A stretch of 64,000 nucleotides of DNA, from NCBI GenBank assembly GCA_951406725.2, contig OX597819.1, positions 103,912,001-103,976,000 of the forward strand, read 5' to 3'. The position numbers and the translations under genes were made by a program. The stretch comes from Octopus vulgaris (taxonomy: Eukaryota). The notes below the pieces were generated by a model, which saw only the letters and a list, made by a program, of their open reading frames with translations, did not search any database and had not been told where the DNA came from. Of this stretch, positions 53,266 through 60,466 are shown one piece after another (position 1 is the stretch's first letter; each line of letters starts with the position of its first letter).

Positions 53266-53273
53266 TATAAATA
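53266..53273 (+). promoter_or_regulatory. Candidate TATA box of gene 2
   Basis: TATAAATA ~330 nt upstream of the ATG; possible non-coding first exon ~53296-53353 (cat|gtaaaa) spliced to acceptor tttacag| at 53539; weak in AT-rich DNA. Confidence 0.35.
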
Positions 53274-53592
53274 TCTGTCTGTACACACATATTTTGTCAT
53301 CAAAGACAATTAATATAATGCTCGTGTACATTTTCGTGACACTCACAAGACATGTAAAAACTTAAATCAATTTTGTGGGTTTTATAGTTGTCAAAACATT
53401 ATAGTTGTCAAAATATCATCTAAATCATAGATAACGCTACAATAAATTACCGTAATATATGTTTATAGCAACTTTAGTAGGTGCTAATGAGGTAAACATC
53501 TGTTACAGCACTTATTATTATATAAACCTATGTTTACAGCAGGTGTGAGGGCATAATATCACCACATTTCAAGTACAAGAAGATTATCAATA

Positions 53593-53629
53593 ATGAAGGC
53601 CTGTATATGTATATGTCTTCTGATAGCGG
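53593..53629 (+). CDS. Gene 2 signal-peptide exon: MKACICICLLIA(G)
   Basis: aataATG context, hydrophobic core, consensus donor g|gtaagt in phase 1. Confidence 0.8.
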
Positions 53630-56600: not shown

Positions 56601-58879
56601 AAGCTAATAGCTCTTTCATCATTTAACAAGTTGTATCACGAACAAATTGTTAAATAACTTACGTGAGCTCCGAAACCCTCGTTGCCAGATTTCCTCCATC
56701 TCCAGTGTAACGATCCATCAATCTCTTCACGAACCAACAATCAATATTCCAAACGAACTAACCGAACTAACGCACAAACTTCACTCTGACCGCTACTATT
56801 TATAATCGCTCGGTCCAGTCTATATCTTGAAAGCAGAAGTCATGACATTTATGACAACAGTATGTATGTACGTTTATGCGCAGATTTGTGCTTTGTCTTA
56901 TGTATGTATTCTCATGCACATACTTGTATATCTAGACATCCTCATATATACTTAAATGATAAACTTCTGGAATGTTTTACAGATTTTTACAGTTCCAGTG
57001 ATGGATTGGATCTGTAGTCTTCGAATCCGCTTTCTGTTTTCTTGTTTTCAGAAGCCTAAATTCTCAAGATTGGTATTTAGACAGTGTTTTTCATATCCCA
57101 GTACCACAAACATTACAGGCATAAATCTGAATTTGTAATCTGGATAGAGAAACTGCAAATTTCTCAGTAGTATTTTCTTTTTCGTTGATTTTTAGCTTTA
57201 TGTTAACATCCGCTTGGCAGCTCATTTTCACAACTGTACACAATCTGTTCTCTGTCCCAAATCCTTATGTCAGGTCTATCGAGGTTTTCTATTGAAGTTT
57301 TTGTCTGGGACATTCCACCAGTACACCTTTTTTTTATTATGAGTGACTATGGCTACTACCATACTGTAGATTCTTATTTCTTTGTTCTCGAGTTTATCGT
57401 TCCGGCGGATTTCCTTATAGAGTGTCCTGGGTACAAAATCATGTCTCATCAGCAGATAACACCGTGATGACATTTTCGGACAGCTCCTTAGGACAGGGGT
57501 GATATCTTTGGTGTTAACTCCGCAAAGTCTGCATTGGGTATCATATTTTGCTGCTTTTCTTGCGTCTCGGTCCCTTTTGCGCATCAAGTGTTTGATTGAT
57601 ATTTCCTGTTCCTGGCTTGCAAATGCATACCCATCAAAGTGGTAGTTAGTAACCTGGTTGTTGGTTCATGATAGACTGCTTTTATGATCAGTACTACAAT
57701 CGTCTCGGAGCTTTCTACTAACATATCCATGCATGGTATTCTGCTGATATAAGCTCATCTTTTCATCTGATGATACACTGTGGTAGTTGTACGATATTTT
57801 GGATATGTATGTAAGATTTTAAGACAAGGAACTCTGCACAAGAAGCTGCTTTGCAAGTCTTATGATGTTATCAGCCACATGTATGCAAACTTCGTTAAGT
57901 GATGCACGTCGATACTTGGTTAATAGATGTTGCAAAAAGGGATGTGATACGACATTTAAAGGCAGTTTGGATCGATGTTAAGCATCTGCTGTTTTGTGTT
58001 TTTTTTTTCGTTTTAGTTAGAGGCGGTCAGCTCACTGTTGATGTGGAAATTACGTGTGCTGGTTAGTATTGTCAAGGTTTTCACATCAATGGTTCGGATC
58101 TCATCAAGCATCCAATCAAGCAACCAACAATGTTGGCACTGCAAATATTGTGGGCCAATGTTTTATTGAATACAAAGTGTTTCGAGGTCCAAAGTTTCTT
58201 TATTCGACAGCAATATTCCTTAGTGACACATGTTTTGTTACAAGTTCCATTGTAAGATGTTTTCATCCACTCCTAGATACCTGTAACATTCCTCATTAGA
58301 TATGGGGAAACGGTCAAGTCATTGATGGAGATGCTGCTGGTCTGTTTAGTTCTTCCTCTTTTCACAACCACATAGAAACATTTATGCTGATATATGTATG
58401 TATATATATATGCATGCATTCCCGAGTGGCGCAGGACATGCTGTGCAAAGTCCTGCACGAGTTTAGAATTAATGAGCAGCATGTGGTTGCTGTAATGACT
58501 CCATACGAATGCCCGGATGTTTATGTTCGGCTAAATGAAGCTAAGGTGAAAGCTTCTAGTGTTAGCGGTGGATTTCGGCTATGGTGCGTATTGTCACCTC
58601 CCTTGTTCATATTTTTTATGGTAACAAAATTTTTATAGTCTGTATCTTTCTCTGTCTCTCTTATTGAAATAGTTTGACATAATTATAGATTGACTATATT
58701 GGGAAGCACTATATTTCAGTGGCAATAGAAATTGTCACCTGTTACTTGTTATAAATAAATGTTTATAAAGAGATCTATTGTGGCCACTGCTGCGTGATTC
58801 AACAATTCAGTACGAATGTTGACAATTCCTGCTAACTTTCCATCCTTCAGTAGATTAAATAATTGTATTCACTGAAAGA

Positions 58880-58912
<33 letters not shown>

Positions 58913-60466
58913 TGTGTGTGCGTGTGCATGTGGCATAGCCACATAGCAATTGAATAGAAAATGCTATTTTATGTATTAATATTCAGTACACAAATATATC
59001 TAGACATTTTTTACGACCTCCTGAAACTTGGTTTCAGTTCTTTTCTATTTGAACATCGAAGACTAGTTGGAAAGCAGGTCAACTGCAATTTTGATTCTCA
59101 TCTGAAAATTATTCCTAAAATTTCTGCTTACCATCTGTACTCAAACACATCATCTATTTCCTGTTTATGCTTAATTTACCTAAATGGATTGAAACATATC
59201 GTCTAGTTTTTCAGAGATACAAGATCCACAAATTCGTCTATGAAGTACATGACTTCATCGGCTCACCTCGAATGAAAGAGTAGTGTTGTCCCAAATGTTG
59301 GAATTCCTATCAATAACAAGGGAAATACATAAAAATAATGTACTTAATTTGCTGCTCTGCGTTTTCAGAAGTATCCATAAAACGTTCAAGAAATACAGTC
59401 CCTGTTTATAATGCATTTGAAAATAATTGCTGTTTTCAGGACAGATTCTCTAATCTGTTTTAAAATAAATTCGGCTTGCAGTAAGCAAATAAACACATTG
59501 TAAACAGAAACATATCGCACAGAAGTATTTTGAAAATGTGAATAAATCACGCCGCAATTGATGCTTAAAAGTGTCGCAAACGGCCAGCTGTCCGAATTGT
59601 TAGAGTGCCAAGAAAAGCTTTACCGAACTTGTTCTGTCTGCTAAAGAAAATAAATTCCTACTAGAATTAAAATCTTTAATTTATGCTGAATTGTATGATA
59701 TTTTTTCAATATGGTAAAATTTTGGAAGAGTGAAGAAACAAAGTATCTAATTTCTAGGACTTGCAACGGCGAACGACTGCACTGACCTATACAATTCAAG
59801 ATGTCCCAAAATAATACTCCAGAACCCCGTACATAATCCAGACACTCGCTACTGCACGTATATATATATTTTTACATTTCTTTATATTATTCTACACGTA
59901 ATATCTACATTTATTTTATATGTACAGTAATATCAACTGCTTAATACTAATATTGTTAGGTTGAAACAAACCTAGAAATATTTACTCAGTGTAGTATTCT
60001 AATAGTGTACTGTCATCGTTCGGTTCAATACCGGACTGTAATTGAACATGTTTCGATGCAATAATGTGAAAACACTCACAATTGACTGCTAGATAATTTA
60101 ATATATTATATAGCTGATTTCTAACATAGGTAAGAGTCAGAACACCAATCTACTGATTTACATTTATTACAAATCATTATACCCATTCTGGAATATAAAT
60201 GTTAAATTAGGCAGCTTTGAACTCAGAATATTAGCATGCATATACAGCCAAACAATTAAAGCTTTTATTAACCCTTGTAGAATTTTAATTCACTATGTAA
60301 ATAATGCAGAATATTGCCAAAAATGTTAAACATTTTTTACATTCTGAAAGCCATGTTTATTGATATACTTTATATTTCAGTCGTTTGGTCTCATATCAAA
60401 GATGCGCTAATGCAGGTGAAAAGTGCGGAGATTACTTCAAGCAAACCTTTCACGATCAATGCTGTG
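53593..60466 (+). CDS. Gene 2 (3'-partial, spliced): secreted paralogue, MKACICICLLIAGLATA-NDCTDLYNSRCPKIILQNPVHNPDTRYCTRLVSYQRCANAGEKCGDYFKQTFHDQCC...
   Basis: Exons 53593-53629, 59758-59857 and 60381-60466 join in frame; signal peptide with A-x-A site followed by the same six-Cys domain; open donor at 60467 implies continuation. Confidence 0.82.
54060..56858 (-). mobile_element. Decayed Gypsy/Ty3 LTR retrotransposon lacking recognisable RT, in the gene 2 intron
   Basis: Similar LTR-like blocks ~54110-54278 and ~56706-56858; PBS-like tggcaacgagg (~56677-56687) and PPT gaaaaggggaga (~54279-54290) on minus strand; protease LQLDTSSDISII; integrase HSGNPEMSRMK...VYW, PWSRAHIDYAGP. Confidence 0.85.
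54814..55046 (+). mobile_element. tRNA-derived SINE (family 1) nested in the Gypsy remnant
   Basis: Near-identical to the first half of 23561-23952. Confidence 0.85.
56950..58300 (-). mobile_element. 3' part of a restriction-like-endonuclease non-LTR element (R4/Dong-like), decayed
   Basis: CRLCG...ITPVLRSCPKM...RHD knuckle in ORF 57276-57587 followed by PD-type nuclease remnants. Confidence 0.7.
58420..58620 (+). mobile_element. Short RTE-like RT fragment
   Basis: GFRLWCVLSPPLFIFFM resembles GVRQGCVLSPLLFIIFM. Confidence 0.6.
59758..59857 (+). CDS. Gene 2 exon, type B long: (G)LATANDCTDLYNSRCPKIILQNPVHNPDTRYC
   Basis: ttctag|ga...ac|gtatat, 100 nt, phase 1->2. Confidence 0.88.
60381..60466 (+). 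CDS. Gene 2 exon, type A variant: RLVSYQRCANAGEKCGDYFKQTFHDQCC
   Basis: tttcag|t...g|gtaaga, 86 nt, phase 2->1. Confidence 0.88.

Follow-up and report, generated by a model that had tools for sequence, protein, structure and literature searches.

We analysed a stretch of 64,000 nucleotides (nt) of Octopus vulgaris DNA (G000:C6:103912001-103976000; hereafter the window, with C6 denoting its contig) together with 100 kilobases (kb) fetched from either side, giving 264 kb in total. The window contains the 3' end of one gene (gene 1) and the 5' start of the next (gene 2), and gene 2 is the second of three neighbouring paralogues on C6. The unit of these genes is a two-exon, six-cysteine repeat forming a phase 1-1 module, in which exon A (phase 1-2) encodes Cys1-3 and exon B (phase 2-1) encodes Cys4-6, with the usual spacing C-x7-C-x16-C-x8-C-x7/8-C-x11/12-C. 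Gene 1 has 16 repeats from -8164 to 42320 (window coordinates) and a leader about 11.9 kb upstream of the window, gene 2 has nine repeats from 59758 to 102305, and gene 3 has about 10. An earlier reading made from the letters alone (the sequence-only reading) had placed the start of a second, secreted paralogue in the 3' part of the window, with a signal peptide split by a long intron. The exon at 53593-53629 is likely the signal-peptide leader of gene 2. The features at the start of gene 2 are as follows.

53593..53629, + strand: gene 2 leader exon with 37 coding nt, phase 1; predicted to encode the n- and h-region of the signal peptide
53630..59757, + strand: intron 1 of gene 2; 6,128 nt, with microsatellites and a dispersed repeat
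59758..59857, + strand: gene 2 exon A1 (100 nt, phase 1-2), with Cys1-3 of repeat 1 and the predicted c-region (A-x-A)
60381..60466, + strand: gene 2 exon B1 (86 nt, phase 2-1), with Cys4-6 of repeat 1
53519..53525, + strand: TATATAA, candidate core promoter of gene 2; retained in 3/3 C6 paralogues
53266..53271, + strand: TATAAA at the start coordinate of the sequence-only reading; probably not a promoter, and changed in both paralogues

The start codon at 53593 follows an in-frame TAA at 53554, and the leader ends in G|GTAAGT, with the donor directly after 53629. Exon 59758-59857 is preceded by a pyrimidine-rich TAG acceptor and is in frame both with the leader and with exon 60381-60466. In the joined N-terminus, Lys occupies position 2, the best 8-residue hydropathy is 3.58, and Ala stands at -3 and -1 relative to a cut before residue 18. 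This agrees (by heuristic only) with the criteria for the general secretory pathway and signal peptidase I, i.e., a basic n-region, a hydrophobic h-region and small residues at -3/-1. The best 8-residue hydropathy was 3.4 to 3.8 in all five N-termini computed, and cleavage is predicted after A-x-A, that is, after residue 17. The basic n-region, hydrophobic core and A-x-A site of the sequence-only reading are thus borne out at the level of this heuristic.

Homologous leaders were found at both paralogues. The leader exon of gene 1, which had been foretold upstream of the window, turned up at -11934 when the check was run; it is 37 nt long, has the same donor and is identical to the gene 2 leader at 30/37 nt. 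The leader of gene 3 (G000:C6:104756787, minus strand, about 0.65 Mb away) is identical at 24/37 nt, and all three C6 leaders have 37 nt and GTAAGT. The two paralogues have first introns of 3,733 and 17,559 nt, and TATATAA lies 72 to 74 nt before the ATG in all three. In P0001 (RefSeq model XP_052824892.1 of O. bimaculoides), the same junction is present, with 18/20 of the first 20 residues and 56/74 residues of the leader plus first domain identical to gene 2; the junction is also the same in RefSeq P0004, and it is the leader junction of LOC128248155. Since the noncoding flanks are 64 to 75% conserved between paralogues as well, the case for the leader is built on its conserved ATG, its length, its phase and its hydrophobicity. 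The leader pattern (ATG, phase-1 GTAAG donor, and a hydrophobic, acid-free peptide) occurred once in the 17.4 kb between the repeat arrays; 200 dinucleotide shuffles averaged 0.085 occurrences, and 14 of them (7%) contained the pattern at least once. On the + strand of the 264 kb it occurred seven times, three of them at the two real leaders. By itself the pattern is modest evidence, and conservation decides.

The reading frame, the leaders of the paralogues and the junction of P0001 agree that the ATG exon joins in phase to exon 59758, as had been proposed. Genes 1 and 2 are collinear repeat by repeat, at the protein and intron levels, and this collinearity restarts at repeat 1 behind the leader. 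The claim that the window crosses a gene boundary is upheld. Stop-free frames from the leader extend over 3,019 nt (16 repeats, gene 1) and 1,711 nt (nine repeats, gene 2). In run X3, one contig joins the B1 donor to exon A2 (665 nt past the window end) with one substitution and with 30 letters on the window side, one below the bridging bar. X3, a run of unrecorded kind, also has unspliced contigs at 59600-59774 and 60438-61034. No RNA source was listed for 59700-61100, which counts for neither side, and runs X5 and X14 gave no contigs. Overall, we regard the gene structure as read here as close to certain.

A profile of 14 A exons was compared with 1.84 billion representative sequences and gave nine matches, six of them from Octopus; the other three were discarded as spurious, P0007 and P0009 on inspection and P0008 without inspection. 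No squid or cuttlefish member was found among these representatives, which is weak evidence because the profile has 29 positions. Two of the six Octopus matches, P0006 and P0010, combine a leader of similar kind with two or three repeats and a hydrophobic C terminus, and they map to a second contig, C18, at 16.05 to 17.29 Mb, from which we took a sample of 380 kb. Genes in this cluster consist of a leader (37 nt), an A exon (100 nt), a B exon (86 to 89 nt) and a tail exon that encodes a polar spacer and then a terminal hydrophobic stretch. Eight C18 leaders have GT after 37 coding nt; the search demanded GT at 37 to 40, and in two of the leaders the 37-nt donor is our own reading, in agreement with P0006. 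Stop-free models were obtained for three one-repeat genes, from leader to hydrophobic tail, and for one two-repeat gene. A tail of the glycosylphosphatidylinositol (GPI) type, with polar spacer, hydrophobic end and no cytosolic tail, was found by inspection in 7/8 tail exons, the eighth having an early stop, and also in P0006 and P0010. The C18 proteins are accordingly predicted to be GPI anchored.

For the C6 genes, no terminal hydrophobic stretch was found in P0001, P0004, P0005 or P0011, nor any tail match in a profile search of 464 kb, the last exon of these genes being a candidate one. Their products are predicted to be secreted without an anchor. The claim that the family is secreted fits the C6 models, which end without a hydrophobic tail; the C18 relatives, which end in a GPI-type tail, are predicted to be membrane anchored. 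In a separate observation, the C18 intervals at 17.10 to 17.29 Mb and 16.05 to 16.99 Mb contain small leader-A-B-tail genes as recent, near-identical tandem copies, some of them damaged.

The named relatives of the window genes are exclusively Octopus proteins. By sequence, orthologues or paralogues are O. bimaculoides LOC128248155, LOC106874482 and LOC128249887 and O. sinensis LOC118763774, all of them automatic models that are uncharacterized, partly fragmentary and without a family name. No paper naming these genes was found by accession or topic among the articles searched; one query brought up nothing beyond the structure paper on human RGM. Within these searches, the family appears to be undescribed and found in Octopus only.

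The start of the A exons records a difference in splice register. The distance from exon start to Cys1 is 20 nt in 19 of the 35 C6 A exons, 11 nt in 14 and 14 nt in 2; the long, 20-nt form comprises all three first exons and 16/32 internal exons. In 10/14 short A exons, AT stands in place of the long-form AG. Identity of the upstream introns peaks in the long-acceptor register (0.47 versus 0.19 to 0.41 at other shifts), with 0.48 at the shift of the true acceptor. In the C18 cluster, the 20-nt AG is present in 19/20 A exons, and the exception, the second repeat of the two-repeat gene, has the same AT and downstream AG. Five long C18 A exons carry a latent AG 9 nt inward, and an internal repeat of P0010 opens with the same four residues as the c-region of its first repeat. 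As first exons and the one-repeat C18 genes use the 20-nt AG, the long register would be the first-exon form, inherited internally; on this pattern of acceptors we consider an origin of the long register from the first exon quite probable. It is the splice register, more than the residues, that preserves the relic. The alternative that every long A exon opens its own gene was rejected, as no leader homologue was found before any internal long A exon.

We propose the following history. The ancestor would have been a one-repeat, GPI-anchored gene consisting of leader, A, B and tail, of which the A plus B pair, a symmetric phase 1-1 module, was duplicated in tandem. Each copy would have taken over the acceptor and c-region codons of the first exon, and some copies would then have lost that AG and taken up another located 9 nt downstream, at the cost of three residues. 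The C6 lineage, without the anchor, may afterwards have multiplied as whole genes. Its product would be a cotranslationally exported, disulfide-stabilised chain of small helical domains that binds an extracellular partner. For gene 2, this amounts to a leader followed by nine helical repeats of six cysteines each, in a secreted chain that would act as a multivalent binder of an extracellular protein, a reading to which we assign a probability of roughly 0.7. Secretion, disulfide pairing and fold of the C6 products are predictions, and on the binding role of the repeats, taken separately, we hold the odds to be even.

Several results weigh against this reading. The junction between 53629 and 59758 was found in no read or contig of the four runs checked over 53010-53690, a result that is uninformative, the leader being uncovered in all four, including run X1, in which every sampled word of the downstream stretch was present; as the comparison did not span the whole of intron 1, the junction could have appeared only as a loose end. 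As to the history, the -3/-1 rule still applies to just 4/16 long internal C6 exons. In trees with a C18 outgroup, the C6 root fell at repeat 2 and repeat 1 was a long branch, nested among short-register repeats rather than basal, and in the tree of A-exon DNA repeat 1 grouped with short exons (support, 89/96). Approximately unbiased tests rejected neither a basal repeat 1 (P = 0.28) nor a single short clade (P = 0.40) nor a single long clade (P = 0.21). The tree results imply a more tangled history or a weak signal in 63 columns. The suggestion that long internal exons are relics of the first exon therefore survives for the splice register, which was kept and which the one-repeat relatives show in first-exon form, but descent from exon 59758 is unsupported by the trees; likewise, of the suggestion that their extra residues are a relic of the c-region, the inherited long register stands, but the cleavage rule applies to few of these exons.

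The first alternative for the function starts from the resemblance of the repeat to the RGM N-terminal domain (PF06535; RGMA/B/C, hemojuvelin; PDB 4UHZ). Both are helical (the octopus repeat by prediction), of about 60 residues, with six Cys and a C-x8-C-x7-C core, and both have a D-x-x-F/Y-C and L-x-x-Y-x-x-C motif and a phase-1 intron before Cys1; a GPI anchor, predicted in the small octopus relatives on C18, is a further common trait. Pfam RGM_N was listed for 8/14 family proteins and was above the cut-off in 1/14 (P0003, 29.1 versus 24.2 bits, summed over two repeats), and RGMB N-domain chains took the top three rows when the family profile was compared with PDB (best E, 0.094). The repeats might thus be divergent RGM N-domains that still bind BMP/GDF, the C18 proteins being anchored coreceptors and the C6 proteins soluble, multivalent BMP traps. 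BMP signalling would then have a candidate octopus-specific regulator in this family, provided that the weak resemblance reflects descent as well as ligand binding. We consider this unlikely. According to PMC7354924, RGM-N has three helices and three disulfides and contacts GDF5 via its RGD/RGN loop, Leu103 and His106. In the octopus repeats, the loop Gly is present in 3/40 and His106 in 0/40, and the Leu103 position is Phe in 36/40. Against the genome's own RGM N-domain, the repeat profile scored 6.3 bits, a value reached by 72/1,000 Cys-preserving shuffles, and the hhalign probability was 0.2%. The spacings also differ (C1-C2, x7 versus x4 in RGM; C5-C6, x11-12 versus about x21), and an extra phase-2 intron splits the octopus repeat, whereas the N-domain exon of the genome's canonical RGM gene, which lies separately on contig C2, is unsplit. 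Unlike RGM, the octopus genes have 1 to 16 tandem repeats and no C-terminal vWD-like domain. GDPH is the autocleavage site of the RGM C-terminal, Neogenin-binding domain; this domain is absent from the family models, which contain nothing beyond leader, repeats and a tail that is short or of the GPI type, and GDPH was seen in the C2 gene. Separately, the BMP-contact loop of the C2 gene differs from the vertebrate RGD/RGN.

A variant of this view would make the genes an octopus-specific RGM N-domain family, with GPI-anchored one-repeat coreceptors on one chromosome and, on another, secreted 9- to 16-valent traps, the repeats having diversified so that a re-wired interface serves different TGF-beta-family or other extracellular ligands; we judge it improbable. 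The fold searches gave no clear assignment. AlphaFold2 predicted four helices per repeat, at confidence (pLDDT) values of 52 and 63 (63 for P0006) with alignments of four and eight rows, and structure comparison of both models (VIA-align) gave no clear match, with no RGM or GFR-alpha among the 50 matches listed for either model. A phmmer search of PDB with P0003 gave no match, the ESM Atlas gave a lead-level DUF19 match for P0003 (0.80) and none for P0006, and Pfam searches of eight single exons gave only one irrelevant subthreshold match. GDNF/GAS1 proteins (GFR-alpha, PF02351) are similar in having helical Cys-rich repeats, a signal peptide and a GPI tail, and the UniRef label of P0006 is "GDNF/GAS1 domain-containing", without Pfam backing. 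PF02351 was found in 0/14 family proteins, with a single match in the genome on another contig (C15), and GFR-alpha domains have ten Cys versus six in the octopus repeat. On these comparisons, the family does not appear assignable to RGM or GFR-alpha and resembles the RGM N-domain weakly, to which it may be remotely akin.

A different alternative makes the C6 products a secreted structural or adhesive material, such as that of mucus, skin, suckers or egg coats, in which the repeats form a disulfide-locked rod and not a ligand surface. The long and variable repeat number (9, about 10 and 16), the tandem expansion of whole genes and a relaxed constraint (ratio of nonsynonymous to synonymous substitution between paralogues, 0.52 to 0.63 over 429 codons in 7 repeats) would fit such a material, but low-complexity composition is absent and the one-repeat relatives with a GPI tail fit cell-surface recognition better than bulk material, and we hold this explanation to be doubtful. 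Hardly credible is the last alternative, in which ATG and donor came together by chance, or the leader is a noncoding remnant, and the A/B exons belong to one long gene or to several small ones that each begin at a long A exon, because, even with the pattern in 7% of the shuffles and with flanks so conserved that conservation of the leader DNA alone is no proof, a 37-nt phase-1 leader is common to three C6 genes, eight C18 genes and the named protein models, collinearity restarts behind it and internal long exons have no leader homologue.

The split signal peptide itself is ordinary, and exon duplication of this kind is a textbook mechanism. Class 1-1 symmetric exon modules are well known from secreted animal proteins, where they spread by exon shuffling and duplication, and the octopus genes share with them a phase-1 intron that splits the signal peptide and phase-1-flanked modules duplicated in tandem. 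They go beyond the textbook case in that the genome still has relatives with one and two repeats and in that the 9-nt acceptor shift is readable in both clusters. An undescribed two-cluster family with a readable history is of moderate interest: the start and modular structure are now fixed for an unnamed family whose public models are partly fragmentary, and the genes offer what may be an unusually clear record of a secreted repeat protein growing from a one-domain anchored gene, in which codons of the signal-peptide c-region would have passed into internal repeats and then been shortened through the acceptor shift.

The remaining features of the window belong mostly to gene 1.

565..42320, + strand: gene 1 array within the window, from repeat 3B to 16B; B and A exons alternate, 27 in all
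4044..4143, + strand: long internal A exon of gene 1 (repeat 5), starting 20 nt ahead of Cys1
15101..15200, + strand: long internal A exon, gene 1 repeat 8
27346..27445, + strand: long internal A exon, gene 1 repeat 12
29999..30098, + strand: long internal A exon, gene 1 repeat 14; agrees with the -3/-1 rule
38909..39008, + strand: long internal A exon, gene 1 repeat 16; agrees with the -3/-1 rule
42771..42868, + strand: orphan B-type exon, candidate last coding exon of gene 1; A partner deleted
45671..46164, + strand: conserved block, candidate 3' terminal exon or untranslated region of gene 1; acceptor at 45716
60876..61012, + strand: short open frame in intron 3 of gene 2 with an acceptor-like site ahead; probably intronic, bypassed by the X3 contig and P0001

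The extra length of gene 1 (window 15101-38908) consists of further duplications of the repeat 8 plus 9 pair, introns included, of which gene 2 has one. At the 3' end, a deletion in window 42335-42868 took the A exon of gene 1 repeat 17 and spared the orphan B. O. bimaculoides P0005 and P0011 end on residues similar to this exon, which P0005 uses after B16, out of frame, and P0011 in place of B16; gene 3 likewise terminates in an orphan B (C6:104677174). Block 45671-46164 is about 70% identical to the 3'-end blocks of three other C6 copies. In gene 2, a stop codon is formed at the junction of the last B exon (extended window 102305) with the conserved terminal acceptor (108305). The decayed fourth copy, which follows gene 3 at G000:C6:104655521-104621749, has broken A and B exons and a conserved 3' block.

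The 60876 frame was rejected as the last exon of gene 2, as nine repeats run on downstream, and its homologue in gene 1 contains stops. As relics of a GPI-tail exon, the 60876 frame and the 45716 block were also rejected: they ranked 1,412 and 3,094 of 21,990 windows, nhmmer against the GPI-tail exon gave an E of 8.4 or nothing, and the likeness is by eye only. The unspliced X3 contig at 60438-61034 runs from B1 through intron 3 and ends 22 nt past the stop of the 60876 frame; a retained intron, DNA or a short one-repeat isoform could each account for it. The A and B halves have a common three-Cys spacing (x7-8, then x12-16) and were superimposed by MAFFT, in an alignment that misplaced B exons and was left unused, and the six-Cys repeat may itself be an old internal duplication. 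Finally, window 62790-63810 contains decayed open-frame remnants, read by eye, that we take to resemble a mariner/Tc1-type transposase.

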